A DNA stretch of 64,000 nt, taken from the NCBI GenBank assembly GCA_041645165.1, contig JBAZQN010000004.1, forward strand, positions 18,789-82,788, in the 5' to 3' direction. The stretch comes from Patescibacteria group bacterium (GTDB taxonomy: Bacteria > Patescibacteriota > Patescibacteriia > 2-02-FULL-49-11). Made by a program: the position numbers and the translations under genes. This document shows, piece by piece, positions 5,625-41,003 of the stretch (positions within the stretch are counted from its first letter, which is position 1; every line of letters starts with the position of its first letter). The notes below the pieces were generated by a model that saw only the letters and a list, made by a program, of their open reading frames with translations, made no database searches and was not told the origin of the DNA.

Positions 5625-6354
5625 AGGCGTGGCTTTTAATAATCATTCCGAACTTCTGTTCAAACTCCATAATTGCCACCTTATCGCTATAAATATTTAC
5701 CTCAAGTCCGAAATCGAAAGGAAGATCAACTAATTTGCTTTCACGGAGATGATTTTTGTCTCGGGCTTTGACGGATTGTGCGTATTTGGTATTCGGCATT
5801 ATAACCTTAATCGGTATTTTTTTATTTGTTCGCCTGTTGAAGTAATTTTCTATAAAATTTCCCAAGCGTTCATACACGATCTTGCCGCCGGCGTAAGCCA
5901 GAATTTCTTCTGAAGAGGTAAGCGTATCTTCATATACTTTCTTAATGCCCTCGATCCCTTCGTAAAAGCTTATTTCCGGTTTTTCTGTTCCAGTTTTATA
6001 AATTGTTTGCAGTTGGGCAATGATATCATCAACACTCAACTCGAGCTTTTTAGCGTTTCTCGTTACTCTTAAAACTATATCCTTAAGCCGCGCCGGGCTT
6101 AATGCCTTGATCGCCTTCCCTCTCCGCTTGTCTACAAGCAATTCAATCAACCCTTTCTCCAAAAGTGAATCAAGAACTTTATATCCCGTCACGCGGTCTA
6201 TGTGCGCCGCTTGTGAAATTTCTGGCACAGAAGCGATCCCCAAGGTAAGGGAGGCGGTATAAAATTTGATTTCACTATGAGATAAACCTAATTTCTTTAA
6301 AAAGTTGGTTATTTTTTCTTGTGGAAGCATATATTTTAGTTGATATATAGTCAA
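5500..6354 (-). CDS. TrmB-family HTH transcriptional regulator (paralog A). The likely true start is the internal Met at 6330
   Basis: N-terminal HTH (SHSEIKFYTASLTLGIASVPEISQAAHIDRVTGYKVLDSLLEKGLI) with a TrmB-like C-domain. It has two paralogs in this window (16887.., 47673..) sharing the FYEG..G....YED and K.PIK motifs. Confidence 0.7.
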   Translation of the reverse strand: MTIYQLKYMLPQEKITNFLKKLGLSHSEIKFYTASLTLGIASVPEISQAAHIDRVTGYKVLDSLLEKGLIELLVDKRRGKAIKALSPARLKDIVLRVTRNAKKLELSVDDIIAQLQTIYKTGTEKPEISFYEGIEGIKKVYEDTLTSSEEILAYAGGKIVYERLGNFIENYFNRRTNKKIPIKVIMPNTKYAQSVKARDKNHLRESKLVDLPFDFGLEVNIYSDKVAIMEFEQKFGMIIKSHAFAQAQKEIWKLAWERAQEYDKNSRYKKRDTQDKPAEKSEHL

Positions 6355-9500: not shown

Positions 9501-9769
9501 GCATCAGGGTGCTCCCGCGCGATAATGCGCGCAGCAAAATGAAGGGTCAGGGGAAGAAAATATACCCGATCCGCAAAATCCGCGTCAGTCTGCACGGTGG
9601 CGATGTTGGGATTTAAGAGAACAGTTTTGATGCCTTCTTCCTTAAGCGCCTTAATCGCCTGCGAACCGGAATAATCAAACTCTCCGGCTTGGCCGATTTT
9701 CAAACCGCCGGAACCGATGATAAATACTTTCTTCGGAAGGGTCTTTTTTGATAATGTGTTTTGCATCAC
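6509..9769 (-). CDS. carB: carbamoyl-phosphate synthase large subunit
   Basis: 1086 aa with duplicated ATP-grasp halves. N-terminus KKVFIIGSGGLKIGQAGEFDYSGSQA. C-terminal MGS-like domain. The last 15 codons are encoded by a dispersed 47-bp repeat (see findings). Confidence 0.95.
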   Translation of the reverse strand: MMQNTLSKKTLPKKVFIIGSGGLKIGQAGEFDYSGSQAIKALKEEGIKTVLLNPNIATVQTDADFADRVYFLPLTLHFAARIIAREHPDAILLNVGGQSALNLGLELDREGVLKRHRVRVLGTSLKTIHDTEDRAAFSARLQKIGIAVPRGTTVKNMEEGLLFAKRIAYPVMVRVGFSLGGLGSGYARNPRELRELLNTALSQGGEALLEEYLGGWKEIEYEIMRDSFGNAVTVCNMENMDPMGIHTGESIVVAPSQTLSNKEYHLLRAMALKVAHHLDIVGECNIQFAVEPKPRVKSRVMPRIRVIEVNARLSRSSALASKATGYPLAFVATKAALGIPLHAIPNAITRATGSFFEPALDYIAVKIPRWDLTKFRAAELTIGSEMKSVGEVMALGRSFPEALQKAVRMLCLGKELFMNNGYHDLEKALRDIRIPTPSRLFAFTFALGHKVNVSRIARLSGIDPWFLSHLKTLAGAYASLRAKGWDEVRRNTPALKKLKQLGFSDACIAEACAHTEHAVRRLRKQCGVVPTVKQIDTTAGEFPAKTNYLYCTYHGSAHDVTRERRPAIVLGSGPYRIGSSVEFDWCCVNTAKTLRHKKIRTIVVNSNPETVSTDYDMSDRLYFEELTLERILDICEFERPRGLVVSMGGQVPNNLALSLAHAKVPLWGTSARNIDRAEDRHKFSALLDRLNIDQPAWKELTTVREACAFANAAGFPVLVRPSYVLSGSAMNVAEDEEELTRYLTAASAVTPDHPVVVSKFIEGAKEVEIDGVAQKGELVLYAVTEHVEHAGVHSGDATVVYPPQRLFLETTRRVKLVCRNIVKELDITGPFNIQFLVKDNRIQVIECNLRASRSFPFVSKVSRYNFIDFATRAMLGEDIRGDYRTLDLDYVAVKAPKYSFSRIKGADPKPTVEMASTGEVACFGDSYEEAFLKAIAAAGNYYPKKTILLSIGPDTAKGILLFDIQALSRQGFVFAATEHTANFLEDNGIETLCLRKVSEGGSPNVSEWIRGRKVDCVINIPERRQTSSSRTDGFFIRRLAVDSHIPLHTDLKIAKMYLRSLSTTKEDDLSAKAWDEYTTAERWWKG

Positions 9770-9777
9770 AAAGGATA

Positions 9778-9886
9778 TAAATCAAAATGCAAATCTCAAA
9801 ATCCAAAATGAAAGTGTAAAATTTATAAATTTTGATTTATCATTTTGATTTTTGATTTTTGGATTTTACATTTATACGGTAAGGTG
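9778..9886. repeat. AT-rich inverted-repeat element (family caaaatgcaaa...cattttgatttttgatttttggattttacatt) between carA and carB
   Basis: Imperfect ~40-bp palindrome. The right arm 9841-9872 is identical to 62931-62962, and the left arm matches 62868-62895 with 2 mismatches. Confidence 0.7.
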
Positions 9887-9895
9887 CAGTATCCT

Positions 9896-11032
9896 TCATA
9901 GTAATTTTACAAACTCATCAAACAGATAATTCGTATCATTCGGTCCTGGATGCGCTTCGGGATGAAATTGCACCGAGATAAACGGCAGCCTCCGGTGTGC
10001 GATACCTTCAACGGTCTTGTCGTTGGCATTGCGGAACGATACGCGCCACTGCTTCGGCAGAGAAGATTCGCGCACCGCATATCCATGGTTCTGCGAGGTG
10101 AGCACGCAACGATGGGTGCCTTCAATGCGGCACGGCTGATTCTGCCCTCGATGGCCATAGGGCAACTTATATGTGTGAGCTCCCGCGGCAAGCCCCATCA
10201 ATTGGCTCCCAAGACAGATGCCAAAGAGGGGACGCTTTTGCCGAAACGCTTTTTGCAGAAGAGCGATAGTAGCGCGGCACTGCATGGGATCTCCCGGCCC
10301 ATTTGAAACCACAATGCCGTGAGCGCGAAGCCGGGTAAAATCATAGTCATAGGGCACGCGGGTGACCCGCACTCCGCGCGCTACAAGCGAACGCACGATA
10401 CTTTCTTTCGCGCCGCAATCAACTAAAATGACGTGCTTTGCGCCTCGCCCGACATGCGATACGCGCGGTACCGTGACCTGTGCCACAAGATTTTCTTCGT
10501 TGGGATCTTTGTTTTCCACATACGCATGACTGTGCACAATCGTCCCGCGCATCACCCCGTGCGCTCTGATCTTTTTAGTAAGCGCGCGGGTATCTACGCC
10601 CGCAAGGCAGGGCACTCCTTCCCTTATCAGCCACCGCGAAAAAGAATGCACGCCCTCCCAATGGCTCCAATGCTCAACGCACTCGCTTACAATCACCCCA
10701 CGGACCTGCATCTTTTTTGACTCCCAGCTCTTAGCGGATGGGACGCCGTAATTGCCAATAAGCGGATACGTAAACACGAGTATCTGCCCCCTAAATGAGG
10801 GGTCAGTGAGCGACTCGACATAGCCGACCATGCCGGTGGTAAATACTACCTCCCCCCCCGCAGATACAGGCGCCCCGCAGGACACCCCAGACCATCGTGT
10901 GCCGTCCACAAGGGCAAGTTCGCCCGCTAAAGGTGCCTTCCTAAAAGGCCAAAAAAATCCCCCTTGTGGGGGAATGGGAAAAACGGCAGTAGTTTGGGTG
11001 TTGGGCGCACGTCTGGTAGAGCGAAGAGGCAT
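9896..11032 (-). CDS. carA: carbamoyl-phosphate synthase small subunit (glutamine amidotransferase)
   Basis: GEVVFTTGMVGYVESLTDPSFRGQILVFTYPLIGNYG. GATase triad region GICLGSQLMGLAAG...HGYAV...FHPEA. The N-terminal ~40 aa are atypical and contain a GC palindrome. Confidence 0.9.
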   Translation of the reverse strand: MPLRSTRRAPNTQTTAVFPIPPQGGFFWPFRKAPLAGELALVDGTRWSGVSCGAPVSAGGEVVFTTGMVGYVESLTDPSFRGQILVFTYPLIGNYGVPSAKSWESKKMQVRGVIVSECVEHWSHWEGVHSFSRWLIREGVPCLAGVDTRALTKKIRAHGVMRGTIVHSHAYVENKDPNEENLVAQVTVPRVSHVGRGAKHVILVDCGAKESIVRSLVARGVRVTRVPYDYDFTRLRAHGIVVSNGPGDPMQCRATIALLQKAFRQKRPLFGICLGSQLMGLAAGAHTYKLPYGHRGQNQPCRIEGTHRCVLTSQNHGYAVRESSLPKQWRVSFRNANDKTVEGIAHRRLPFISVQFHPEAHPGPNDTNYLFDEFVKLL

Positions 11033-11336
11033 GGATGGAAAGGTTGAATTAAACCTTTATCTAAGACGCCCTGTAAAAATAACTTCACGCTTTGATTAAC
11101 TGCCTTGCCTGAAATAATAGCATTATATACAAGAACGACCCTATAAGTTATTTTTTCTGGCACCCTAAAAGACAGTATAACGGCAAAAAGGCTATCAAAC
11201 AAGTGGTTTAAGTCGAGTGTGCCCCCCCTGCCATCTTTAGGGGGCTCTAAGGCAAGATATTTTTCCACAGGCAGATGAATCCAAAGTGTTCATTTTTTCG
11301 CTTAAGTACGAATAAATTCAGCATTTTCCTCCCTTC

Positions 11337-11365
11337 TTGACTTTAGCTCTTTTCTCTGCTATACT
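11337..11365 (+). promoter_or_regulatory. near-consensus sigma70-type promoter TTGACT-N17-TATACT
   Basis: ttgact at 11337-11342, a 17-nt spacer, and tatact at 11360-11365. It lies ~550 nt upstream of the next + strand CDS. Confidence 0.45.
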
Positions 11366-11731
11366 GCTGATGTAAAAATAAAGTCACCCAAGTTAAGAAG
11401 CGGAGAGCGGAGGTCTCATCTTAGCTTTAAAAACCAAACTTAAGGTATTACCTCCGTTTTCTACTTCTCGAGGATAATATTCGCCGATATTATCCGCAGT
11501 TATAAAAATAACTGAAAAAATAAAAATAAAAAGTTTTATTTCGTACGCAATTACCCTTAAAAAAGGTATTGAATGTACGAGGAGGGAGGTAGAGAATATA
11601 GGGCTATTTAAAAATTCGGCAATAGCCTAAAGGGGCTTACATCATCATCTCCGCTTTTACCCACCAGGGTGAGAACGGGGTGGGTATTAGTCCCTTGAGG
11701 CCCACGCTGGACCCTATATTCTTTTTTATTC

Positions 11732-11758
11732 GGCCCCTAGCGGGGCCTCATTTTTTTT
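11732..11758 (+). terminator. Rho-independent terminator (ggcccc-tagc-ggggcc followed by T9)
   Basis: GC hairpin immediately followed by tcatttttttttat. It closes a ~370-nt non-coding transcript from the promoter at 11337. Confidence 0.45.
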
Positions 11759-11913
11759 ATTGCGCACTTATCCTATACATGGTAGTATCAATACACCTTA
11801 GGCGCCATAAAAAAAATAACAAATCCAGCCATTGGCATGATAGTTCTGGAAAACAAGGCTAAACCTTATGCTTAAGTGAAATGTTATTTTTTTAAGCGCC
11901 CTTACCTCATGAT

Positions 11914-12303
11914 ATGACTTTTCCGCTTTCACTTATCAAAGAGCAAAAAAAGAAACTCGAGCAAGAGCGCGACCAGCTGAAAAAACAGCTTGACGCCATC
12001 TCGAAACGCGGCAAGGGGAAAAAGCCCCGCGGGCTTGATGCGAAATTCCCCTCGTACGGAGACAAGGAGGATGAGAACGCCGCAGAGGTTGCCCAATATT
12101 CTGATGATCTTTCGCTCGAAGAGACGCTTGACCATGCGCTCGCCGACGTAGAGGGCGCACTGAAACGCATAGAGAACAGCACGTATGGCGTATGCCGGCA
12201 CTGCGGCGAAGCGATCGACCAACGGCGCCTTAACGCGCGCCCCTCTTCTTCCTCATGCGTAAAATGCAAACAGAGGCTGAAATCCGGCGGAGGAAAAAAA
12301 TAA
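11914..12303 (+). CDS. DksA/TraR-family C4 zinc-finger protein
   Basis: Coiled-coil N-terminus followed by CRHCGEAI...RRLNARP....CVKCK, the DksA/TraR signature. Confidence 0.7.
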   Translation: MTFPLSLIKEQKKKLEQERDQLKKQLDAISKRGKGKKPRGLDAKFPSYGDKEDENAAEVAQYSDDLSLEETLDHALADVEGALKRIENSTYGVCRHCGEAIDQRRLNARPSSSSCVKCKQRLKSGGGKK

Positions 12304-12327
12304 TATTCCATTGCGCGTAATCAGTGT

Positions 12328-12768
12328 ATGGATGTGAGGAAGTATTGCGGAGATAACAACAATGACATAATCGTATCCGCGCTTTTCGTACTCGACCGTG
12401 TATTGAAATGGCGCGCGCTCACCCATCCTCCTTCCCCCCCGGATGGTTTTTTTGTATATCACCAAAATCCCGGCATCGCGTTCTCACTGCCTCTAGCACC
12501 TATCCCGCTGATCACACTGCTTATCCTTGGCGTCGCGACAGTCGCGTGGCTGTATATCCAGCAACGTAAAAAATCAGTGCGGCACGCGCTCCCCTACCTC
12601 CTCATACTCGCAGGCGCCGTTTCCAATATCATCGACCGTCCGCTCTCAGGCGGAGTGATTGACTATTTTTTTCTTCCCCCTTTGGGATTGTATTTTAACA
12701 TTGCGGATGTCATGATAGTGGGAGGAATACTATTGCTTATCTTCAATAAAGATGAGAAGATAACATAA
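12328..12768 (+). CDS. lspA: lipoprotein signal peptidase (signal peptidase II)
   Basis: HQNPGIAFSL, AVSNIIDRPLSGGVIDYF, YFNIADVMIVGG motifs. Four TM segments. Confidence 0.8.
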   Translation: MDVRKYCGDNNNDIIVSALFVLDRVLKWRALTHPPSPPDGFFVYHQNPGIAFSLPLAPIPLITLLILGVATVAWLYIQQRKKSVRHALPYLLILAGAVSNIIDRPLSGGVIDYFFLPPLGLYFNIADVMIVGGILLLIFNKDEKIT

Positions 12769-12794
12769 TCCTTGAATGGATAAAATATAATATA

Positions 12795-12925
12795 AAATCA
12801 GGTCATGAATTTTCAATTCTCAATTTACAATTTTCAATCAATGACCTCATGTCTCTATTCTCATACATTGAACCATTGATTCATTGAAAATTATTTGAAA
12901 ATTGATACCTGAAAATTTAGGTACT
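12795..12925. repeat. AT-rich hairpin-rich intergenic element (aattttcaa / ttgaaaatt word family)
   Basis: ggtcatgaattttcaattctcaatttacaattttcaatcaatgacc hairpin plus cattgaa...ttgaaaatt repeats. The same words recur at 29190-29369. Confidence 0.5.
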
Positions 12926-12930
12926 AACTT

Positions 12931-14454
12931 ATGGCTACCAAAGTCTTTTCTGCGGCAATCGTAGGTTTGGAGAGCGAGCTCGTCGAAGTGGAGGCTGATG
13001 TCGGCAATGCGCCGTCCGCATTTATCATCGTGGGGCTCCCTGATAAAGCCGTGGAGGAATCAAAGGAGCGTATCAGATCAGCAATGAAAAATTCCGGATT
13101 GGAATTTCCGCGCCCCAAGGTCACGGTGAACCTCGCGCCCGCAGATTTGAAAAAAGAAGGCCCGAGCTACGATCTGCCCATCGCGGTGTCCGTGCTTGCC
13201 ACGCAAGAAGCGTTCATGTGGGCTCCTGAAGACCAGCGTGCGCTGTTTGTGGGGGAATTGTCCCTTGATGGCCACTTGAGACCTATCCCGGGCGCGCTTT
13301 CCATCAGTCTCCTTGCGAAACGTAAGGGGTTCCCGCGGATTTTCCTCCCTGTGGAAAACGCGGCAGAGGCTAACCTTGTGCCCGACTTGGAAATCATGCC
13401 GGTTACTACGCTGTCAGCGCTCGTACTCCACCTTACAGGTGAACGCCAAATAGCGCCGCTTAATTACACCCCTCCCGCCCCTCCGGAGGGTTCAACAAGC
13501 CGGTATGATATGTGCTATATCCAAGGCCAGGAGCACGTGAAGCGCGCGCTCGAGATCGCTGCCGCGGGCGGGCACAATGTGCTGATGTCCGGACCGCCCG
13601 GCGCGGGGAAAACCCTGCTGGCGAGAACCCTCCCTTCCATACTCCCCACCCTCACGCTAGAGGAAGCGCTCGAGGTTACCCGCCTTTATTCTGTGTCAGG
13701 CGTGATGCCAAAGGAATCCCCGCTCCTCTGGGAACGGCCGTTCCGCGCCCCTCACCATACGGCGTCAGGAGTCGCGGTGGTGGGCGGAGGCACCATTCCC
13801 CGCCCGGGGGAAATCAGCCTCGCGCATCGCGGTATTTTATTCCTTGATGAATTTCCGGAATTCGGACGGGCGGTGCTTGAAAATCTGCGCCAGCCGCTGG
13901 AAGACGGCGTGGTGGCGGTCTCCCGCGCGGCAGGCACCATGCAATTCCCCGCGAAATTCATGCTCATCGCGGCCATGAACCCATGCCCCTGCGGTTATGC
14001 CACTGACCCGACGCGCCATTGCCTCTGTAGTGTGGGACAAGTGATGAAATACCAAAAACGGCTTTCAGGGCCGCTCCTCGATAGGATCGACATCCACACA
14101 GAAGTCCCAAGGCTCAAATTCGAGAAACTTGCCGACACTGCGGTTGCTGAATCCTCATCTGCGATCAGGAAACGCGTAGAGCAGGCGCGGCAGAAGCAAT
14201 ATGCACGCTTCAAAGGGTCCCCCATCCTTACCAATGCCGAAATGTCGTCGCGTGAAGTGCGCGAGTATTGTCCGGTGAGCGTTGGAATACAAACCATCCT
14301 TAAAAACGCGGTCACCACCATGCATCTCTCCGCGCGAGGCTATTACCGCGTGCTCAAAATCGCGCGCACCATCGCGGATCTCGGCGGCGAAGAGCCGATT
14401 ACCACTTCACACGTCACCGAAGCGCTCCAATATCGGCCGAAGGTGGGAGAATGA
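12931..14454 (+). CDS. YifB/ComM-family Mg-chelatase-like AAA+ ATPase
   Basis: Lon-like N-terminal domain. Walker A LMSGPPGAGKT and Walker B ILFLDEF. C-terminal MgChelatase domain. 507 aa. Confidence 0.9.
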   Translation: MATKVFSAAIVGLESELVEVEADVGNAPSAFIIVGLPDKAVEESKERIRSAMKNSGLEFPRPKVTVNLAPADLKKEGPSYDLPIAVSVLATQEAFMWAPEDQRALFVGELSLDGHLRPIPGALSISLLAKRKGFPRIFLPVENAAEANLVPDLEIMPVTTLSALVLHLTGERQIAPLNYTPPAPPEGSTSRYDMCYIQGQEHVKRALEIAAAGGHNVLMSGPPGAGKTLLARTLPSILPTLTLEEALEVTRLYSVSGVMPKESPLLWERPFRAPHHTASGVAVVGGGTIPRPGEISLAHRGILFLDEFPEFGRAVLENLRQPLEDGVVAVSRAAGTMQFPAKFMLIAAMNPCPCGYATDPTRHCLCSVGQVMKYQKRLSGPLLDRIDIHTEVPRLKFEKLADTAVAESSSAIRKRVEQARQKQYARFKGSPILTNAEMSSREVREYCPVSVGIQTILKNAVTTMHLSARGYYRVLKIARTIADLGGEEPITTSHVTEALQYRPKVGE

Positions 14455-14579
14455 GACAGTCTTCAGTTTATTAGTTTTTCAGTTCATCAGTCGTCAGATT
14501 GGAGGGCGGTATTGATATAGTGTATTCAATAAACGCAAGAAGTCCCCAGGATGCACGAAGTATCTGGGGACTTTCGGTT

Positions 14580-15950
14580 TTAACGATCGAATGGCATCTT
14601 GCGATTAATCCATTCGATCAATTTCTGTCGCCACCGAGGTCGTTTCCCGCCTTGAGGAAGGAGAGGGAAGGTGGTGTTTTTCCCAAATGGCGTGAGAAGG
14701 ATGATGATGGTAAGGTAGGCAAGGTTGCTTGCCCACCTATGCCATCTGCGTGGGTGGGTGAGGGGAGAGCCCAGCGCGGCGAAGTCGAGGTTATAGAAGA
14801 AACTTGGATGACGAACTGTCTTCTCTACTGGCGCGGCGAAATTTACACTCATCCAGTTGTCGTTCTTCGGGATGAACATCTTCGCTAGATATGGTCTTGC
14901 CACTGCTCCGCAGAAGAAACTTTTACGAACACTGTACCAAACAGTCTTCGCAAGCGTTCGTAAGTTATCTTCAGGAAAGCCAAACACCATCAACAGCTCC
15001 GCCGTAATCCCGACTTCACGGCAAATTTCCAGAACACGGTCACCGAGGGATAACCGGTTGTGGGTTTTATTCTCATCACGCCAGACTTTCTCATCCGTAC
15101 CGTCGAAACCGAACCCAACCGCAAAGAGGTTGGCTTTCATTACCAATTCGTGAAAGTTCGGCAAGGTTTTATAGGCAGTGATAAATGAGGAAATGCAGGA
15201 GAGTCCACGGATGCGAATCTGCACCCCGGTCTTCTCACTCACATCTCCCACAATGGTGAGAAAGTCAGCGAACAACCGCGGGCTTTGAAACAAGTCCAAA
15301 CTGGAGATATAGAATTGTAATTTGGACAGTCCAAATTCTCTTGCCTTACCTGCGAGGTATTGCAGGTCGGTCCGAATCTTCTCGAGAGAACGGAACCGTT
15401 CCTGTCGTGATTTTGCCGCACCGCAGAATCGGCACGCAAAACGGCAGCCCTGCGCTACAAAGAGACCTGCTTCTTGCTCGAGATAAAGTTTCAACGCCTC
15501 GTCCGAGATAGTTTTGTACATCTTAACGCAGTCGATCTCAAACACATCTGGAAGTTGGTTAACGCCGAGTGCTTTTTTCAAGGTGCTATCATTGTTAATT
15601 TGGATAGGTTTATCGCCGAAGAGCGTTTTGAACTGATTAGGAAGCAATCCTTCAGTCACTTGTCCGCCAATAAGAATCGTGGCGCGAGGATTAACTTGAT
15701 ACACTTGGTTCGAGAACTGAATAGCGTCCGGCATATTAGAACTACCAACAAGAGAGGTACCAATAAAATCAGCTGCACGGACTTTATCTTGTACCCATTG
15801 CTCGTCAAGGGAGTTAAGATTGAGATCAATCAACTCGACCTCAAAGCCTGCCTCAATAAGTTGTGCACCCACAACGATCAGGGTGCTGGGCAGGTATATT
15901 TGCCGTTTCCCAAACGGGTACGGCAGATTAAACAGTGATATCTTTTTCAT
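14580..15950 (-). CDS. radical SAM protein with N-terminal B12-binding-like domain (second rSAM locus). The C-terminal ~50 aa are low-complexity and may be over-extended
   Basis: CxxxCxxC motif AQGCRFACRFCGA. N-terminal Rossmann-like domain. A glycine-rich GFGFDG region. Confidence 0.7.
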   Translation of the reverse strand: MKKISLFNLPYPFGKRQIYLPSTLIVVGAQLIEAGFEVELIDLNLNSLDEQWVQDKVRAADFIGTSLVGSSNMPDAIQFSNQVYQVNPRATILIGGQVTEGLLPNQFKTLFGDKPIQINNDSTLKKALGVNQLPDVFEIDCVKMYKTISDEALKLYLEQEAGLFVAQGCRFACRFCGAAKSRQERFRSLEKIRTDLQYLAGKAREFGLSKLQFYISSLDLFQSPRLFADFLTIVGDVSEKTGVQIRIRGLSCISSFITAYKTLPNFHELVMKANLFAVGFGFDGTDEKVWRDENKTHNRLSLGDRVLEICREVGITAELLMVFGFPEDNLRTLAKTVWYSVRKSFFCGAVARPYLAKMFIPKNDNWMSVNFAAPVEKTVRHPSFFYNLDFAALGSPLTHPRRWHRWASNLAYLTIIILLTPFGKNTTFPLLPQGGKRPRWRQKLIEWINRKMPFDR

Positions 15951-15985
15951 GATTTAGCTCCTTTTTAAATTGTCAAAGAATTTTC
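15951..15985 (-). promoter_or_regulatory. conserved leader motif TTGACAATTTAAA(AA)GGAG immediately upstream of the start codon (copy 1)
   Basis: Minus-strand reading: ttctttgacaatttaaaaaggagctaaatcATG. It is almost identical to the leader of the adjacent gene (16560-16595). Confidence 0.4.
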
Positions 15986-16004
15986 GATTTTAGTTTTAGG
16001 ACTC

Positions 16005-16559
16005 TTACCAAGAGAATTCGAGCCCCAGCAGGTTTCCTGCCCACTGGGTTGGTTTCCAAAGCCTCACTTTACAGCAGAAGCGCCCCCATCTGGCTTTGAC
16101 AAAGGGTCCAACTTTAAGCTGACGGCTCTCATTGAAGATCCAAATAAACTGTTCCCCAATTCCAATATCGAGTGATTTCTTTTTAAGAAGATGGAGGTCT
16201 GTGAGGTGGTAAAGCCATCTCCCCTTCCTAGTCACTGAAACTTGATTAAGGCCAGTGACATATTTGTTATCGACATAGCACTCAAAAGAAAATCCTGCAT
16301 AATGGCCAAACAGTATCCCAATGGCTGGGATAATCTTGAGTGGAGTGATTTGGAATGGTGTCGATTTGCCGATGAATGTTTCTAAGGTTTTTTCAAAGTG
16401 GTTATATCTTGCATCTATCCAAATTCCGCCCACTTTGATACTCCCCCATAGAAATGGCTCTATCCCTTTTTCGGTAGAAGCCATGAACAGCGTAAAATCT
16501 TGCGCGGACGCGGTGTCCACGCATGCGAGGGCTAAAAGCACAAATAATATCTTTTTCAT
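16005..16559 (-). CDS. hypothetical secreted protein (signal peptide MKKILFVLLALACVDTASA)
   Basis: Classic Sec signal peptide. 184 aa. Aromatic-rich with a C-terminal EFSW. It is paired with the rSAM gene and shares its leader motif. Confidence 0.5.
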   Translation of the reverse strand: MKKILFVLLALACVDTASAQDFTLFMASTEKGIEPFLWGSIKVGGIWIDARYNHFEKTLETFIGKSTPFQITPLKIIPAIGILFGHYAGFSFECYVDNKYVTGLNQVSVTRKGRWLYHLTDLHLLKKKSLDIGIGEQFIWIFNESRQLKVGPFVKARWGRFCCKVRLWKPTQWAGNLLGLEFSW

Positions 16560-16595
16560 TGTATTTCTCCTTTAAATTGTCAATGATTCTATATT
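16560..16595 (-). promoter_or_regulatory. conserved leader motif TTGACAATTTAAAGGAG (copy 2)
   Basis: Minus-strand reading: tcattgacaatttaaaggagaaatacaATG. Confidence 0.4.
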
Positions 16596-16799
16596 TCTAT
16601 ATTTCGGATTTTAACGAGGTAGTATATGCCTGTGATAGCAAATGTATAGGCTATCTAAGACACTTACATTAGATATTGCAATTTTTTGGCTAATATAATA
16701 TAATAAAAGTGTCGGGGAAGTTTCCACAACATTGTCATGTAGAAGCCACTTTACGCCTTGAATAACGCAAGTTCACGCCATTGGTCATAACTCCCCTAG

Positions 16800-16875
16800 C
16801 CCCTCTTATCCTAAAGAGGGGGGAAATTGTGCGACACCCTCACCTTAATCCTCTCCCTTTCTAGGAAGAGGGGGT
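16800..16875. repeat. two GC-rich palindromes (cccctcttatcctaaagagggg; ctctccctttctaggaagaggg) upstream of TrmB paralog B
   Basis: Members of the CCCCTC..TTA..TAA..GAGGGG hairpin family seen throughout the window. Confidence 0.7.
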
Positions 16876-16886
16876 ACGAAAGGAAT

Positions 16887-17648
16887 ATGAAAGAAGATTT
16901 ATTAAAAATACTCGCAGATATTGGATTTTCGGAGAAAGAGGCGAAAGTGTATCTCGCCCTGCTTGCGCTTGAAGCGGCGACGGCGAATGAGATCGCAAAA
17001 AAAGCAGACATCAATCGGACATCAGCATATGATGTGTTGGAAATTTTAATTAAAAGAGGAGTGGTGAGCAAATACAAGAAGAAGAGCCGAACGTTTTTTA
17101 ACGTGAGCGATCCGAGGAAACTCATTGCATATCTCGAGCATGAAAAAGCTGATCACGAGAAGACGATTGAGAAACAGAAGACAGCGGTGTCCGTAATCCT
17201 GCCCGAGCTTATTTCTTTGCAAATGCCCTTAAGCACGAGGCCGAAGGTGCAGTTCTATGAAGGCGAAAAAGGAATGCGGGAGGCGTATGAAGATACGCTT
17301 AACGCGAAGGAAGGAATCTTGGCATATGCAAACGTTGAGACTGTTCATGCGGGTATTCCGAATTTTTTTCCGGAGTATTATCAGAGGAGGACAAAACTAG
17401 GAGTACCTATTAAAGCAATTTTTACAGAAAACGAACTTTCGCGTGAACGCGCTTCTCATAATCGGGAAGAGCTACGCCAAACAAAATTTTTACCTGATGC
17501 AAGCATGAAATTCTCGCCCGAGGTGAACATCTATAATAATAAAGTACTTATCGCGTCATGGCAGGAAAAAATGGCTGTGATTATTGAGTCCAAGGAATAC
17601 GCAGATCTCATGCGGCTGACGTATCAGTTGTTATGGGATCGGCTTTGA
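16887..17648 (+). CDS. TrmB-family HTH transcriptional regulator (paralog B). The ORF-track TTG start at 16827 is probably upstream of the true ATG
   Basis: MKEDLLKILADIGFSEKEAKVYLALL aligns with the N-termini of paralogs A and C. An RBS-like aaaggaa precedes the ATG. Confidence 0.7.
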   Translation: MKEDLLKILADIGFSEKEAKVYLALLALEAATANEIAKKADINRTSAYDVLEILIKRGVVSKYKKKSRTFFNVSDPRKLIAYLEHEKADHEKTIEKQKTAVSVILPELISLQMPLSTRPKVQFYEGEKGMREAYEDTLNAKEGILAYANVETVHAGIPNFFPEYYQRRTKLGVPIKAIFTENELSRERASHNREELRQTKFLPDASMKFSPEVNIYNNKVLIASWQEKMAVIIESKEYADLMRLTYQLLWDRL

Positions 17649-17760
17649 CTTTCTAGTGCCGTTACAATATAGTTTTCGGTGATGCGTTTCCATAATTCAT
17701 CCTATTTTATTATATATTTTATGAATGGTATATCTGAAATTCAAATTGTAACGGTACTAG

Positions 17761-17786
17761 ATTCCGGATCAAGTCCGGAATGACAC
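17761..17786 (+). promoter_or_regulatory. ATTCCGGATCAAGTCCGGAATGACAC palindromic leader element immediately upstream of pyrC
   Basis: Perfect hairpin attccgga-tcaag-tccggaat followed by gacacatacctATG. A near-identical GGAATGACAC.TAC..T-ATG tail precedes pyrD. Confidence 0.5.
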
Positions 17787-17792
17787 ATACCT

Positions 17793-19058
17793 ATGTCCCA
17801 ACTCATTCGTTTCCCCGGCATGGTGGATATGCATGTGCATATGCGCGAGCCAGGGATGGCTCAAAAAGAAGACTGGCTCACGGGAACTTCTGCGGCAGTC
17901 GCAGGCGGAGTGGTTGCGGTCGTTGATATGCCGAATACCATTCCGCCCACGTTCACGAGTGAGGCATTAGATGAAAAGGAAAAAATCGCGCGCGAGAAAG
18001 CCCTTTGTGATTACGGATTCTATTTCGGTTCTGACGGCAGCAACCTTGGTGAATTTGAAAAAGTATATGACCGCGTATTAGGGTTAAAACTTTATTTGGA
18101 TGAAACCACAGGTGCGCCACCTCGTCATTCCCATGGAAATGGGAATCCAGATAGTAAAAATAAATCGATTCCTGTTTTTTCTGGATCCCCGATCAAGGCC
18201 TGCCCCGCACTTGATGCGGGGTCGGTGATGACATTGAAGCAGGGGGCGAACACGTTATTACTTGAGGATGAAAAAATAATTAAAAGCATATTTCGCGCCT
18301 GGCCGCGCGGCAAGCCGATTCTTGTGCACGCGGAAGGCGAGAAGCTTGCACGCGCGATTATCCTAGCTCAAAAGAATTACCAAAAACTCCACTGCTGCCA
18401 TATTGCCACGAAAAAGGATATAGAAGTAATCGCAAAGGCCAAGATGAAGGGAATATCACTCACCTGCGAAGTCTCACCGCATCATTTATTCCTCACCAAT
18501 AAGGACAGAACGCGGCTAGGATCACTCGCAATGATGAAACCGGAGCTGGGTACGGAGGCGGATCAACAAGCATTGTGGAATCATATTCAAAAAGGCACTG
18601 TTGATTGCATTGCTACGGACCATGCACCGCATACACTTGAGGAAAAATTGACCTCAGATCAACACAGTGACCCCTCCTCTGTCCCCCCCTTACTAAGGGG
18701 GGGATGGGGGGGTCCTTGGGGCGTGCCCGGGTTAGAGACTGCAATGCCTCTGCTTTTAACTGCGGTTGAAGACGGAAAATTAACCCATGAAGAACTCACG
18801 CGACTTACCAATATAAATCCGTGCCGTATATTGGGAATACGTCCTGCAGGACAGACGTATGTGGAAGTAGAAACCGGCATACAATACCAACTGGATGAAA
18901 GAACGCTAAAAACCAAATGCGGCTGGTCGCCGTTTGCTGACATGACGTTGAAAGCGCGCGTGGCGCGTACGATCATTCGTGGCGTTGAGGTATATAAAGA
19001 TGGTAAGATAGTGGCAGCGAAAGGCGTGGGAAGGCCGATCTTGTCATCTCCGACTTGA
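17793..19058 (+). CDS. pyrC: dihydroorotase
   Basis: Metal-binding DMHVHMREPG, DHAPH and amidohydrolase fold. It contains two in-frame palindrome-encoded insertions (HSHGNGNPDS at 18127-18146; DPSSVPPLLRGGWGGPWG around 18682-18702). Confidence 0.85.
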   Translation: MSQLIRFPGMVDMHVHMREPGMAQKEDWLTGTSAAVAGGVVAVVDMPNTIPPTFTSEALDEKEKIAREKALCDYGFYFGSDGSNLGEFEKVYDRVLGLKLYLDETTGAPPRHSHGNGNPDSKNKSIPVFSGSPIKACPALDAGSVMTLKQGANTLLLEDEKIIKSIFRAWPRGKPILVHAEGEKLARAIILAQKNYQKLHCCHIATKKDIEVIAKAKMKGISLTCEVSPHHLFLTNKDRTRLGSLAMMKPELGTEADQQALWNHIQKGTVDCIATDHAPHTLEEKLTSDQHSDPSSVPPLLRGGWGGPWGVPGLETAMPLLLTAVEDGKLTHEELTRLTNINPCRILGIRPAGQTYVEVETGIQYQLDERTLKTKCGWSPFADMTLKARVARTIIRGVEVYKDGKIVAAKGVGRPILSSPT

Positions 19059-19105
19059 TCGGAGATCTAGTCAAAACATTAAAAAAAACAATTCATTTCT
19101 ATTGA

Positions 19106-19160
19106 TTTCTGGATTCCCGCTGGAGCCTGTCCCGTACCGCGATACGGGGCGGGAATGACA
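19106..19160 (+). promoter_or_regulatory. TTTCTGGATTCCCGC...GCGGGAATGACA inverted-repeat element upstream of pyrD
   Basis: The same terminal 15-mer and 12-mer recur at 40973-41003. It encloses the cccgtaccgcgatacggg hairpin. Confidence 0.5.
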
Positions 19161-19169
19161 CCTACAACT

Positions 19170-20090
19170 ATGACTACACTACAAACCACATTTTGCGGCG
19201 TAGAATTTGAGAATCCTTTAATTTTGCCTTCTGGCATCATTACTGAAATCCCCGCGCATAAAAAAGCAGAAGACGCAGGAGCAGGAGGCGTAACGCTCAA
19301 ATCCTTTACCGTGCAGCCGCGCGAAGGGCACCCCTTGCCGCGCATTATAAAATATGACCATGGTTTCTTAAATTCCGTAGGCCTGCGTAATGCGGGTATT
19401 GAAAAAGGCAAAGAGGCGGTCAAGGAATATCTCTTGCACGCGGGCGTCCCCACCATCGTGAGCGTATTTGCGACAAATGTGAAAGATTTTGTCCGGCTGG
19501 CGGAAACGTTTGCGCCGCTTAACCCTGCGATGATTGAGCTTAATCTAAGCTGTCCGAATGTGGAAGACGAATTTGGCGACCCAAGCGGCAATACTGCCGA
19601 GAGCGCGGGCAATGCAGTGAAAGCAGTGAAAAAGGTTGCGGGCGCGGTGCCGCTTATCGCAAAACTGTCACCTAATGTGGCGAGCATTGCGGATGTGGCG
19701 AAATCGTGCGAAGCGGCAGGCGCCGATGCGATTTCTGCCATTAATACGGTAGGGCCGGGCATGGTTATTGACATTAAAACGCGTAAACCTGTGCTCGGGC
19801 ATCTCAAAGGAGGCGTTTCGGGCGCGGGGATTTTTCCGGTTGCCGTGGCGAAAATCTATGAGCTCTATGACGCGGTAAAGATTCCCATCCTCGGCATGGG
19901 AGGCGTGACGAGCTGGCAGAATGCGGTTGAGATGATGATGGCGGGCGCGTCCCTGGTAGGCGTGGGTTCGGCAGTATACAGCAAAGGATATGTAGTGTTT
20001 GAGGAGATAAAGGAAGGACTCACAAGATACCTGGAGGAGAATGGATTCAATAATATTAATGAGGTGGTGGGGTTAGCGCACAACCATTAA
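19170..20090 (+). CDS. pyrD: dihydroorotate dehydrogenase catalytic subunit (class 1). The ORF-track start at 19155 lies inside the upstream repeat; the Met at 19170 is favoured
   Basis: FENPLILPSG, NSVGLRN, LSCPN, IAKLSPN, MGGV..W motifs. Confidence 0.85.
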   Translation: MTTLQTTFCGVEFENPLILPSGIITEIPAHKKAEDAGAGGVTLKSFTVQPREGHPLPRIIKYDHGFLNSVGLRNAGIEKGKEAVKEYLLHAGVPTIVSVFATNVKDFVRLAETFAPLNPAMIELNLSCPNVEDEFGDPSGNTAESAGNAVKAVKKVAGAVPLIAKLSPNVASIADVAKSCEAAGADAISAINTVGPGMVIDIKTRKPVLGHLKGGVSGAGIFPVAVAKIYELYDAVKIPILGMGGVTSWQNAVEMMMAGASLVGVGSAVYSKGYVVFEEIKEGLTRYLEENGFNNINEVVGLAHNH

Positions 20091-20199
20091 ATCCCAATGA
20101 CCATCCTTCGACAAGCTCAGGATGACAAGAAGTCATTGTCATGGTGAGCCGAGTCGAACCATGGAATTTAGTGCTTGGAGCTTAGAATTTTATTGAGAT

Positions 20200-21195
20200 A
20201 TGACTTTTTTTGAAAAACTCACCGCGGCCATGCAGCAAAATAACAGCCTCCTCTGTATAGGCCTTGATAGCGATTTCGAAAAAATCCCTGAATGTTTAAA
20301 GAAAAAGACGAGAGGGGATAACACACCCCCGCCCGATGGGCGACCCCTCTCAAGAGGGGATTACTCAAGCCGGCAGCGGGCGGAAATAATTCTGGCATTT
20401 AACCGCGCGATCATTGATGCGACGAAAGACGCAGTGTGCGCATACAAACCGAACAGCGCATTTTATGAAGCGCTAGGCGGGCGGGGTCTTGAAATTCTCA
20501 AACAGACAATCCAGTATATCCGCGAACGCGCGCCTGCTATTCCTGTCATTCTCGACGCAAAACGCGGGGACATTGGCTCCACCAATGCCTCGTATGTCCA
20601 ATTCGCCTTTTCGTATCTGAAAGCTGACGCAATTACCCTCCATCCCTACCTTGGGAGAGAAGCGCTCCAGCCGTTCCTTGATCAAAAAGAGAAAGGAATA
20701 TTCGTATTGTGCCGTACCTCGAATCCGGGAGCGGGTGAATTTCAAGACTTGAAGGTGTTTCGTTTTCAGGGTCATTCTGACCCCGCAAATGCGGGGGAAG
20801 AATCCCCCACGAATGTGGACCGGCATGCGCCGGAGACCCTTCGACACACTCAGGGTGACACTAATGGCGAAGAATTGTATAAGGTGGTGTCGCGCCAAGT
20901 AGCGGAAGAATGGAATGCAAATGGCAATTGCGGGCTGGTCGTTGGCGCGACCTATCCTGAAGAGCTAAGAGAAGTCCGCACCATCGTCGGTAATATGCCA
21001 ATTCTCGTACCCGGCATCGGCACGCAAGGCGGCGACGTGGAAAAGACGGTACGGGCTGGCATCACGGCTCAAGGAAACAGCATAATCGTCAACTCCTCAC
21101 GCGGGATTATCTTTGCTTCGTCAGACGAAGATTTTGCCGAGGCGGCAAAAATAGAAGTATTGAAGTTAAGAGATCAGATTAATCAATATAGATAA
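20200..21195 (+). CDS. pyrF: orotidine 5'-phosphate decarboxylase (long type 2 form)
   Basis: LCIGLDSD, DAKRGDIGST and VPGIGTQGG motifs. Two in-frame palindromic insertions at 20329-20357 and 20781-20796. Confidence 0.85.
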   Translation: MTFFEKLTAAMQQNNSLLCIGLDSDFEKIPECLKKKTRGDNTPPPDGRPLSRGDYSSRQRAEIILAFNRAIIDATKDAVCAYKPNSAFYEALGGRGLEILKQTIQYIRERAPAIPVILDAKRGDIGSTNASYVQFAFSYLKADAITLHPYLGREALQPFLDQKEKGIFVLCRTSNPGAGEFQDLKVFRFQGHSDPANAGEESPTNVDRHAPETLRHTQGDTNGEELYKVVSRQVAEEWNANGNCGLVVGATYPEELREVRTIVGNMPILVPGIGTQGGDVEKTVRAGITAQGNSIIVNSSRGIIFASSDEDFAEAAKIEVLKLRDQINQYR

Positions 21196-21215
21196 TTATG
21201 AAATGAGAATATAAT

Positions 21216-21701
21216 ATGCAAAAAATTATTATTGGAGTAATGGGACCAGGAGAGAGTGCCGCCGAATCAGACAGAGAACATGCTTATCAAATGGGGAAAC
21301 TTATTGCCCAAGCAGGGTGGGTATTGTTAACCGGCGGTCGGAATAGAGGGGTGATGGATGCTGCGAGTAAAGGTGCAAAAGAGCATGGTGGCCTTACCAT
21401 AGGAATCTTACCTACCTCAGATCCAAATACTGTGTCTGATGCTGTTGACATGCCGATATTTACAGAAATGAAAAGCGCACGGAATAATATCAATGTACTC
21501 TCTAGTAGAGTAATCGTGGTATGTGGTATGAGTGCGGGAACTGCTTCTGAAGTTGCAATGGCTCTCGTGGCAAACAAACCAATCATTCTCATTGATCAAA
21601 ACAAAATAAGTAAGGATTTTTTTCAAACTTTAGGAAAAGAAAAGGTCAATTTTGTAGATACACCTCTAGAAGCTCTTGATAAGATAAAACACTTATTATG
21701 A
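21216..21701 (+). CDS. LOG-family / TIGR00725-like Rossmann-fold nucleotide-binding protein
   Basis: IGVMGPG....GGRNRGVMDAASKGA...GMSAGTASEVAMAL, resembling the PGGxGTxxE LOG signature. Confidence 0.55.
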   Translation: MQKIIIGVMGPGESAAESDREHAYQMGKLIAQAGWVLLTGGRNRGVMDAASKGAKEHGGLTIGILPTSDPNTVSDAVDMPIFTEMKSARNNINVLSSRVIVVCGMSAGTASEVAMALVANKPIILIDQNKISKDFFQTLGKEKVNFVDTPLEALDKIKHLL

Positions 21702-22333
21702 CCAACGAACAAGTGCTTGAATTTTTTAAAAACACTGGCGGTTATATCACAGATAGCCATATAGTGTACACCTCGGGAAAGCATGGATCGGCGTATTTGA
21801 ACAAAGACGCGATTTATCCGCACACTAGTCTCGTGTCTGAGCTTTGCAAGGTTTTTGCTCAAGAATTCAAAGGGAAAGGGATTGAGGCGGTAGCCGCGCC
21901 CGCACTCGGCGGCATTATACTTTCCCAGTGGACTGCGCACTATTTAAGCCTTATGGAAAAACGCGAGATACTCGCGGTATATACAGAAAAAACACCTGAC
22001 AACGGACAGATGTTTACGCGGGGGTATGATAAATGCGTTGCGGGAAAAAAGGTGCTGGTCGTGGAAGATATTTTAAATACTGGCGGATCGGTGCGCAAAG
22101 TGGTGGACGCGGTGCGGCAGGCGGGCGGCACGGCGGTCGCGGCAGCCGCGCTCGTCAACCGCGGGAGAGTTACATCGAAAGATGTGGGAGAGGTTCCGCT
22201 CTTCACCCTTGCTTCAATCAACCTCGAAGCGTGGAACGAACACGAGTGCCCTTTGTGCAAACAAGGAATTCCTGTAAACACCATCGTCGGCAAGGGGAGA
22301 GAATATCTGAAAAAGCAACAAAGCAACTCATGA
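21698..22333 (+). CDS. pyrE: orotate phosphoribosyltransferase
   Basis: PRPP-binding VLVVEDILNTGGS. 211 aa. Its start overlaps the stop of the upstream gene. Confidence 0.85.
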   Translation: MTNEQVLEFFKNTGGYITDSHIVYTSGKHGSAYLNKDAIYPHTSLVSELCKVFAQEFKGKGIEAVAAPALGGIILSQWTAHYLSLMEKREILAVYTEKTPDNGQMFTRGYDKCVAGKKVLVVEDILNTGGSVRKVVDAVRQAGGTAVAAAALVNRGRVTSKDVGEVPLFTLASINLEAWNEHECPLCKQGIPVNTIVGKGREYLKKQQSNS

Positions 22334-34036: not shown

Positions 34037-34076
34037 TATAACACGGATTTCACCAAAATGCAACTTTATTATCCAT

Positions 34077-34457
34077 TCAATCTAAGCGGGTCGTGTTATT
34101 TTCTTTTTTAAACCAATTTATAAAAAATAAAATTCCAATAAAAAATGCAGGTCCCGCAATAATGAGCGACCAAGATATCATATACCATTCAAATGGACTC
34201 ATCATGAGCATAATAATATAGAGCACTCCGGCGAGTGTAAAAGCAATTCCTCCCACTATTTCATATTTCCATGAGATTAAGAGAACTGCCAATAAAATAA
34301 ACGCGGGAATATTGTGCATCAACAGTCCTACAATTGTTTGCCAAAAGCCAAGCTTTAACTCAAAAACATCTAATGAAAACAACACGAGGAAGAGGATGAA
34401 CATGATCGATAAGCCCCTTGGCGTCCAATATATAAATTTGCTAACCCTTTTTTCCAT
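34077..34457 (-). CDS. small membrane protein (4 TM), in an AT-rich island
   Basis: Strongly hydrophobic 126 aa. The codon usage is AT-rich like its neighbour. Confidence 0.4.
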   Translation of the reverse strand: MEKRVSKFIYWTPRGLSIMFILFLVLFSLDVFELKLGFWQTIVGLLMHNIPAFILLAVLLISWKYEIVGGIAFTLAGVLYIIMLMMSPFEWYMISWSLIIAGPAFFIGILFFINWFKKENNTTRLD

Positions 34458-34495
34458 ATTTCTGCATTAGGAAATATCAATATCTGGGGCTATTT

Positions 34496-40874: not shown

Positions 40875-40916
40875 GTCAAGTTTAGACGCTGTGAATAATA
40901 GCCTATCCATTCCGTC

Positions 40917-41003
40917 ATTCCAGACTTGATCTGGAATCCAGAAAAATATACAAAATCGACGTTTCTTTTGGCTTTCTGGATTCCCGCCTTCGCGGGAATG
41001 ACA
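40917..41003. repeat. two ATTCC/GGAAT-family hairpin elements (attccagacttgatctggaat; tttctggattcccgc-cttc-gcgggaatgaca)
   Basis: The second copy has the same terminal sequences as the element upstream of pyrD (19106-19160). Confidence 0.7.

Follow-up and report, generated by a model that had tools for sequence, protein, structure and literature searches.

Oriented hairpin repeats of the CGTC-tagged REP family in the pyrC-pyrD-pyrF genes of a Patescibacteria genome

Hairpins in and around pyrC, pyrD and pyrF

The pyrimidine genes pyrC, pyrD and pyrF of a Patescibacteria metagenome-assembled genome (MAG) are interspersed with short oriented hairpins of the CGTC-tagged repetitive extragenic palindromic (REP) type, a family that includes the dRS3 or NTS elements of Neisseria and has been generalised to 'Ssn-related motifs' (SRM; PMC11893778). 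The stretch of DNA analysed here, referred to as the window, comprises 64,000 nucleotides of contig JBAZQN010000004.1 (assembly GCA_041645165.1), and the analysis was extended to 81.9 kb of the same contig (~82 kb). The host, a Patescibacteria MAG whose PyrC is identical to the protein of NCBI locus WC659_02220, stands close to Ca. Uhrbacteria, the nearest genome locus being that of Candidatus Uhrbacteria bacterium RIFCSPLOWO2_02_FULL_49_11 (L001; 81% identity in PyrD). Based on Pfam matches, the order of the genes is TrmB-like, pyrC, pyrD, pyrF, a SLOG-family gene (LDcluster4) and a phosphoribosyltransferase gene that is probably pyrE. An original prediction, made from the letters of the window, had pointed to hairpins directly before the start codons of pyrC and pyrD, which are present as it described them, and had proposed either a shared attenuator- or operator-like regulation of the pyr genes or an element that lands preferentially at 5' ends.

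The conserved unit is an oriented hairpin made of a (C/T)GTCAT tag, a variable 8-bp stem with a 4-5 nt loop, and an ATC(C/T)AG tail; when both strands are aligned, its opposite strand reads TCTGGAT...ATGAC. Alternatively, the same flanks enclose a ~50-nt nested hairpin, hereafter the long nested variant (GTCATTCCCGCCCCGTA..TACGGGG..GCGGGAATCCAG). It is this GTCAT-hairpin-ATC(C/T)AG arrangement, instead of the ATTCC..GGAAT palindrome of the original prediction, that forms the core of the family.

The pyrC leader (attccggatcaagtccggaatgacacatacctATG, 17761-17795) holds a single monomer on the minus strand (17758-17784), which ends 8 nt short of the pyrC ATG at 17793. Read tag first on that strand, it consists of tGTCAT-TCCGGA-CTTGA-TCCGGA-ATCTAG, which on the plus strand becomes ATTCCGGA-TCAAG-TCCGGAAT with an 8-bp stem (predicted folding energy -15.4 kcal/mol, z = -2.65). 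L001, L081 and L082 also have a copy at this position, which differs in the interior of its stem and takes up the entire 42-nt spacer between trmB and pyrC; the copy is absent from L083 and L084, whose upstream gene differs. Among the copies at the pyr locus of the window, this one only is common to the sister lineage formed by L001, L081 and L082.

Inside pyrC, an in-frame insertion of 138 nt, i.e. 46 codons (18114-18251, plus strand), directly follows the codons for ETTG and holds a head-to-head (HH) dimer composed of a plus-strand arm (18124-18150), an AT-rich spacer (18151-18180) and a long nested variant on the minus strand (18181-18232). The perfect palindrome attcccatggaaatgggaat (= ATTCCCATGGAAATGGGAAT) that had been noticed in frame at 18127-18146, where it encodes HGNGN, is indeed present. 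The length of the insertion is a multiple of 3, and the open reading frames (ORFs) of pyrC and pyrF are both intact. The alignment of PyrC to solved structures breaks precisely at the insertion (residues 107/166), and ETTG, by comparison with the human CAD dihydroorotase structures, belongs to the catalytic flexible loop of dihydroorotase (DHOase). The insertion is polymorphic: it is absent from L001, L083, P0002, P0003, P0005, P0006, P0008, P0010 and P0011, among which are the closest relatives (P0002, L001 and P0003/L083), while L084 (P0004) carries a homologous dimer at the same pyrC site, likewise with the long nested variant, and P0007 and P0009 have a related insertion. Such a distribution implies that the site is a hot spot at which insertions were gained more than once, or that the insertion was cleanly lost several times. 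In L084 (4640-4830), the pyrC insertion is bounded by ETTG and EMTG (GAGACGACAGGC / GAGATGACCGGG), which may represent a ~12-nt target duplication doubling the catalytic-loop motif.

The pyrD leader (tttctggattcccgc...gcgggaatgacacctacaactATG, 19106-19172), whose hairpin is bounded by GGATTCCCGC...GCGGGAATGAC, belongs to a second HH dimer spanning the pyrC/pyrD junction. Its left arm (tGTCATCTCCGACTTGATCGGAGATCTAG, 19043-19070, plus strand) fits the published SRM pattern and encodes the final PyrC residues SSPT as well as the TGA stop at 19056-19058. An AT-rich spacer (19071-19108) separates it from the right arm, a long nested variant that reads GTCATTCCCGCCCCGTATCGCGGTACGGGACAGGCTCCAGCGGGAATCCAG on the minus strand (19109-19159) and stops 10 nt short of the pyrD ATG at 19170. 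A spurious in-frame ATG at 19155, the start in the ORF track, falls within the right arm; the start at Met 19170 favoured by the original prediction is confirmed by the relatives, which begin with MTS or MAS there, and by the public gene call. The insertion 19043-19169 is absent from L001, L081, L082, L083, L084 and L002, in which the pyrC stop is followed by 4 nt and the pyrD ATG (L002 by reading the sequence and not by alignment). In the relatives, GKNII forms the C-terminus of PyrC and 4 nt separate its TAA stop from the pyrD ATG; here 19043-19169 replaces this junction, giving a 111-nt spacer. Since six relatives have the 4-nt gap, the pyrD "leader" is a lineage-specific dimer insertion. 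No clear target-site duplication was found at the junction dimer, the ETTG/EMTG pair of L084 being the sole candidate elsewhere.

Farther downstream, pyrF carries in frame an SRM-like monomer (gGTCATTCTGACCCCGCAAATGCGGGGGAAGAATCCCC, 20769-20808, plus strand) within a 23-codon lineage-specific insertion that is absent from the PyrF of L001 and L083. This monomer resembles the hairpin flanking an Ssn-like gene in the named Patescibacteria MAG locus L202. The copies at 18181-18232, 19043-19070 and 20769-20808, and the pairing of copies as inverted dimers, were absent from the original prediction.

Two further HH dimers lie away from the pyr genes. The first is intergenic (40914-41003), flanked by two minus-strand genes, one for a cyclase and one encoding 151 aa, and consists of a plus-strand arm (40914-40941, cGTCATTCCAGACTTGATCTGGAATCCAG), a 34-nt spacer and a minus-strand arm (40976-41003, tGTCATTCCCGCGAAGGCGGGAATCCAG), with palindrome cores at 40917-40937 and 40980-40999; both copies had been recorded in the original prediction, the second with a left boundary at 40973. 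The other, in which both arms are long nested variants, is located beyond the window (71273-71420 in window coordinates; L087 1438-1585), in the spacer that separates gyrA from a NusB/NUDIX gene, whose ATG follows 25 nt later. The predicted folds of the dimers are cloverleaf-like, with tags pairing together and tails pairing too; as single-stranded RNA, 40914-41003 reaches z = -3.6 on the plus strand and z = -4.7 on the minus strand.

The repeat family and its distribution

Ten monomers were found in the 82 kb, six of which lie inside 3.1 kb at the pyr operon. Most copies are paired as inverted HH dimers, in which the GTCAT tags face outwards and the arms are separated by an AT-rich spacer, whose length is ~30-38 nt in the three dimers of the window (18124-18232, 19043-19159 and 40914-41003) and 30-46 nt over all four dimers of the contig. 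The tag reads cGTCAT at 18123 and 40913, tGTCAT at 17785, 19042, 19160, 41003 and 18233, and gGTCAT at 20769; among 241 copies, GTCAT is preceded by T in 75% and by C in 20%, and an A follows ATGAC in 180 of these. Stems and loops combine as ATTCCGGA/CTTGA, ATTCCCAT/GGAA, ATCTCCGA/CTTGA, ATTCCAGA/CTTGA and ATTCCCGC/GAAG, two window copies being longer nested variants, and the tail is ATCCAG in 5 copies and ATCTAG in 2.

These features are those of CGTC-REPs. According to Di Nocera et al. (2013; PMC3733652), the tag of a CGTC-REP is unpaired and reads CGTC or, often, TGTC; the stem has 8-9 bp and starts with A-T/T-A pairs, the loop has 4-5 nt, the tail is CCA, and the elements occur mostly as HH dimers with 20-100 bp spacers; four families, CGTC-1 to CGTC-4, are distinguished there, CGTC-1 corresponding to Neisseria dRS3 and Rickettsia RPE-6, and CGTC-4 to RPE-4. 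The window copies display the tag, the AT-first stem, the loop, the CCA-type tail and the HH dimers. Moreover, the right arm at 40976-41003(-) equals the consensus of NTS, the oriented Neisseria element of Chenal et al. (2025; PMC11893778; CGTCATTCCCGCGMAVGCGGGAATCYRG, one mismatch allowed), at 27 of 28 positions, the sole mismatch being at the first base. The other window copies do not match the NTS consensus; their tag, tail, loop class and AT-first stem opening are those of the family, with different stem sequences. The published degenerate SRM pattern, HGTCWYN(0-2)YYVSBRHN(0-5)WNVSBRGN(0-2)RNCYNB, matches twice in the window (19042-19070 and 40976-41003; 0.32 in shuffles), five copies missing it through stem composition or length. 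Because it matches only these two, the family assignment rests on the CGTC-REP definition and the one NTS match, and a looser oriented-hairpin detector with shuffle controls was used.

Could the likeness between the sites be that of short palindromes resembling each other by chance? The signature first proposed, GGAATGACAC.TAC, stood in part: GGAATGACA belongs to the family consensus, and the 10-mer GGAATGACAC taken alone is not significant (7 matches at <=1 mismatch against 3.2 +/- 2.0 in shuffles), a result that would suit a chance resemblance. The structured oriented motif, on the other hand, exceeds the shuffles, with 6 true matches in the window against 1.6 +/- 1.3 and a maximum of 4 in 100 dinucleotide shuffles, the copies have common oriented flanks and a common dimer architecture, and the identical long nested variant recurs on at least 113 independent contigs. 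The probability of mere coincidence is thereby negligible, and the distinct palindromic repeat family that the original prediction had recognised, clustered at the pyr genes on this contig, is upheld.

The hairpin itself covaries. Sites were picked by their flanks only (GTCAT, 16-17 nt, AT[CT][CT]A) across 1.63 Mb of fetched sequence, which yielded 127 sites against 28 in shuffled sequence. All six inner stem pairs are Watson-Crick in 84 of the 127, with 28 distinct stems, whereas shuffled sites never exceed four of six; it is thus the hairpin that is conserved and not any given stem sequence. Across loci, the dominant loops are CTTGA, GAAA, GAAG and GCAG.

A wider sample was obtained from metagenome contigs chosen solely for the long nested variant GTCATTCCCGCCCCGTANNNNNNTACGGGG (at least 113 contigs, 701 kb), among which assignment to Patescibacteria is established for L202 alone. 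Oriented hairpins number 232 in the listed contigs and 24 in shuffled sequence, which corresponds to a detector background of ~10%. Their dimers are HH in 56 cases, tail-to-tail in 1 and head-to-tail in 10. With ORFs called crudely (ATG starts, >=90 aa), ~75% of the hairpins are intergenic and ~21% lie inside called ORFs. Spacers are equally occupied whether they are unidirectional (59/323), convergent (15/75) or divergent (12/53), and the median distances to the upstream stop (76 nt) and to the downstream start (101 nt) are similar. Homologs of pyr genes occur in only 4 of the 113 listed contigs, about what gene density would lead one to expect by our own estimate. Neither pyr enrichment nor a preference for 5' ends was found among the listed contigs, and the landing preference suggested by the original prediction is thus not supported; outside this contig, the distribution is of the random kind, free of pyr enrichment, that the prediction itself had set against regulation.

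These results bear directly on its other proposal, in which the hairpins would be a shared cis-regulatory pyr element, be it an attenuator, a protein-binding operator or a pyrimidine-responsive RNA switch. Such an element would agree with hairpins placed 8 and 10 nt before the pyrC and pyrD starts behind similar A/C-rich spacers, with the conserved position of the pyrC-leader copy in L001, L081 and L082, and with the TrmB-family gene directly upstream of pyrC in several relatives. Nevertheless, the pyrD leader is absent from six relatives and the pyrC leader from L083 and L084, the in-gene copies are insertion polymorphisms, and the same element occurs within coding sequence and at unrelated sites (the trmB leader of L001, the gyrA/nusB spacer and the cyclase spacer). 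The stems of the two leaders differ, so that, the family flanks apart, they have no sequence-specific operator in common. At the gathering score, Rfam returned tRNAs only over the whole window, and at E <= 10 it returned noise only over 17400-19400, with no PyrR or other cis-regulatory family; there is no terminator-like U tract either. Taken with the scarcity of pyr genes on the listed contigs, these comparisons suggest that the pyr-regulator proposal is largely refuted, and we hold it to be very improbable. Intrinsic terminators were considered as another role for the hairpins and rejected, the terminator scan having found none.

Accumulation, mobility and local effects

We consider it probable that the hairpins are CGTC-tagged REP copies (Neisseria dRS3/NTS, SRM) that accumulated recently in pyrC-pyrD-pyrF, and not a pyr-specific control. 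According to this model, repeats that propagate themselves or recombine would have entered the locus several times. One dimer would have inserted at the pyrC/pyrD junction, replacing the C-terminus and stop of pyrC, and 111 nt of structured spacer would have taken the place of a coupled 4-nt junction; a second would have settled within the reading frame of PyrC, at the catalytic flexible loop, a monomer in frame in PyrF, and an older monomer in the trmB-pyrC spacer. The position just upstream of two starts would result from the shortness of the intergenic spaces and not from a pyr-specific function; in L001, another copy lies 8 nt upstream of the trmB-like start, which likewise argues that proximity to start codons reflects short spacers. 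By analogy with the literature, the hairpin would form in single-stranded DNA, where a GIY-YIG nuclease of the Ssn family, with its gene at another place in the genome, would bind it and nick a few nt outside the tag. Such nicking would explain why the flanks are conserved, and might also underlie spread or recombination.

The proposed partner is modelled on SsnA, a 94-aa GIY-YIG protein that recognises the hairpin in single-stranded DNA only, where it cuts a few nt outside the tag; ssn genes, which code for single-domain GIY-YIG proteins of the cd10448 type, are typically flanked by the motif (PMC11893778). Ssn-like genes were sought with a GIY-YIG motif regex and a hidden Markov model (HMM) built from 120 Ssn-like proteins. 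The HMM gave strong matches on the repeat-bearing contigs L183 (96 aa) and L160/L205 (98 aa), the homologs of the latter including proteins named from Patescibacteria and Roizmanbacteria MAGs, and the Ssn-like protein P0308 is encoded in L202. There, SRM-like hairpins lie on both sides of the Ssn-like gene with tags outward, as judged by eye, and one SRM-like hairpin adjoins the gene in L205 and in L183. From these findings, it is plausible that the published association between Ssn and its motif extends to the phylum. Weak GIY-YIG matches in Peregrinibacteria-type loci (L027, L046, L070 and others) were set aside, as they have no such hairpins nearby. On L183, the contig with an Ssn-like nuclease gene, a dimer (9866-10057) lies between topA and dprA, which codes for a DNA-processing protein for transformation.

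Alternatively, the dimers could be non-autonomous transposons of a REPIN- or MITE-like kind, mobilised by a tyrosine transposase (RAYT or IS200-IS605) or another transposase and not by Ssn. Inverted dimers with conserved termini do resemble REPINs and BIMEs, their presence/absence polymorphism is clear, and the ETTG...EMTG sequence around the L084 insertion could be the trace of a ~12-nt target duplication. These likenesses are countered by the CGTC/TGTC tag, which is not the RAYT-linked GTAG, and by the arms of the dimers, which usually differ, so that no long perfect terminal inverted repeat is formed. Pfam tables for the 82 kb contain no RAYT, Y1_Tnp or other transposase, and Di Nocera et al. 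could assign no transposase specifically to CGTC REPs (PMC3733652). We judge transposition of this kind to be unlikely.

Several observations weigh against the accumulation of SRM-type repeats as we propose it. The 82 kb that lack a transposase also lack an Ssn-like GIY-YIG gene by regex and HMM, only two of the seven clear window copies fit the published SRM pattern, and the Neisseria enzyme requires sequence as well as shape (PMC11893778). The clustering at the pyr operon of this contig is strong and finds no explanation in the model, and the pyrC-leader copy has been kept in the sister lineage. The hairpin-to-ATG spacers of the two leaders, ACATACCT and ACCTACAACT (8-10 nt), are alike, with a similarity score of 6.5 that 0.125% of random 13-mers match, the comparison including the ATG; this shared 'AC.TAC' may stem from local copying of the pyrC leader or from chance, and was rejected as proof of common descent for being too short. 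The leaders may also exert a local effect on expression.

A local effect would be compatible with the accumulation of repeats: elements of selfish origin could have acquired post-transcriptional roles at this locus, as in classical REPs. They might act as mRNA 5' or 3' stabilisers or processing sites, or uncouple the translation of pyrC and pyrD, and the AT-rich spacer might be a new pyrD promoter. The predicted RNA folds of the dimers are stable (z = -3.6 for 19035-19180 and z = -3.1 for 18118-18240), the start regions are unpaired in the predicted folds, and the junction insertion abolished the 4-nt coupling of all relatives. Conversely, the junction spacer yielded no promoter-like site, and the insertions could be neutral or mildly harmful and merely tolerated; acquired effects are thus a tentative possibility. 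A more ambitious proposal is that Ssn-related hairpin dimers constitute an active, unreported repeat system of Patescibacteria, and that their pile-up at the pyr genes is not neutral, being either a mark for recombination at the single-stranded DNA level or for uptake control in these DNA scavengers, or a co-opted, portable leader and spacer that uncouples pyrD from pyrC. It would also cover the dimer kept in frame in the DHOase loop in several lineages and the new pyrD 5' region that resembles the pyrC leader. This proposal seems to us quite unlikely.

Whatever the effects, the distinction is of practical value, as it guards against taking the hairpins for a pyrimidine attenuator and the ATG codon at 19155 for the pyrD start. 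Essential genes have been reshaped, with a 46-residue insert in the catalytic loop of DHOase, a new C-terminus and stop for PyrC, and the loss of pyrC-pyrD coupling. If a partner nuclease is present, these small DNA-scavenging bacteria would provide a natural system to study the effects of Ssn and SRM on incoming single-stranded DNA.

The pyr operon additionally contains three other foreign insertions. A 104-nt insertion resembling a miniature inverted-repeat transposable element (MITE), outside the SRM family, occupies 17657-17760 with inverted 13-nt ends (GTGCCGTTACAAT / ATTGTAACGGTAC) and a TA duplication. It lies at the CTAG-tail side of the pyrC-leader hairpin, which it parts from the end of trmB. 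L001, L081 and L082 do not have it, and the 82 kb hold this one copy only; its left junction is straddled by a promoter-like TTGACT-17-TATAGT (17645-17673). A second palindrome family, rich in G and C runs, is found in frame in pyrC (18648-18719) and in pyrF (20312-20352), as GACCCCTCC..TCCCCCCCTTACTAAGGGGGGGA..GGGGGGGTC and GAGAGGGG..CCCCTCTC; its pyrC copy occurs in L081 and not in the almost identical L001, and is therefore polymorphic between close strains. Elsewhere in the window, an island of low GC content (34001-36000; 0.30 against ~0.49 elsewhere) has ORFs without Pfam match.

The hairpins lie in an unusual genomic context. The genes pyrB (just upstream of the window), carB, carA, pyrC, pyrD, pyrF and the probable pyrE are found within ~24 kb, the window part being 6509-22333, and almost the whole de novo pyrimidine pathway is thus gathered there. 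Such clustering is unusual for Patescibacteria, which often lack nucleotide synthesis. Genes for TrmB-family regulators are found at 16887-17648, 5500-6354 and 47673-48404, one directly upstream of pyrC, as in L001, L081 and L084, and one adjoining carB; they are better candidates for pyr regulators than the hairpins.

Comparison with known systems

Hairpins in the leaders of pyr genes recall the PyrR attenuator (RF00515). Unlike it, those of the window match no model, have no terminator, are not conserved at pyrD, and also occur at unrelated genes and inside coding sequence. A likeness also exists with REP, BIME and REPIN elements, which share the combination of a hairpin with an unpaired tag, the frequency of inverted dimers and a mostly intergenic location; REP and REPIN systems with RAYT differ by their GTAG tag in place of CGTC/TGTC, by the RAYT gene that is missing from the 82 kb, and by the arms of the dimers, which here are usually non-identical.

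Among Rickettsia palindromic elements, the classical RPE-1 is longer and unrelated in sequence. RPE-4 and RPE-6 behave like the window copies in that they sit in frame in housekeeping genes, add a peptide and leave the frame open, their sequence relationship to the present family being taken from Di Nocera et al. (PMC3733652). The corresponding gain in this genome is 46 aa for PyrC and 23 aa for PyrF.

The likeness to NTS/SRM includes the (C/T)GTCAT tag, the TCCCGCG-loop-CGCGGGA hairpin, the ATCCAG tail and the clustering around particular genes, clusters of this sort being also on record in Neisseria (PMC11893778). In contrast, most window stems are TCCGGA, TCCCAT, CTCCGA or TCCAGA, or take the ~50-nt nested form, and the host is a member of Patescibacteria, a phylum that goes unmentioned in the main text of PMC11893778.

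With CGTC REPs, among them dRS3/NIME of Neisseria, the window copies have these traits in common: the tag, an AT-first 8-bp stem, loops of 4 nt (GAAG, GAAA or GCAG) or 5 nt (CTTGA), the CCA tail, predominant HH dimers, heterodimers, spacers of 20-100 bp and occasional in-frame intragenic dimers. To our knowledge, Patescibacteria genomes were not available when the CGTC-REP survey was made. The survey covered five phyla, with most elements in alpha-Proteobacteria, and recorded in-frame intragenic copies and dimers encoding 20-30 aa; in the parts of it used here, the long nested variant is not among the features described (PMC3733652). The elements of the pyrC-pyrD-pyrF locus are therefore of a kind already known, and what is new here is the extension of the family to Patescibacteria, a candidate-phylum host.

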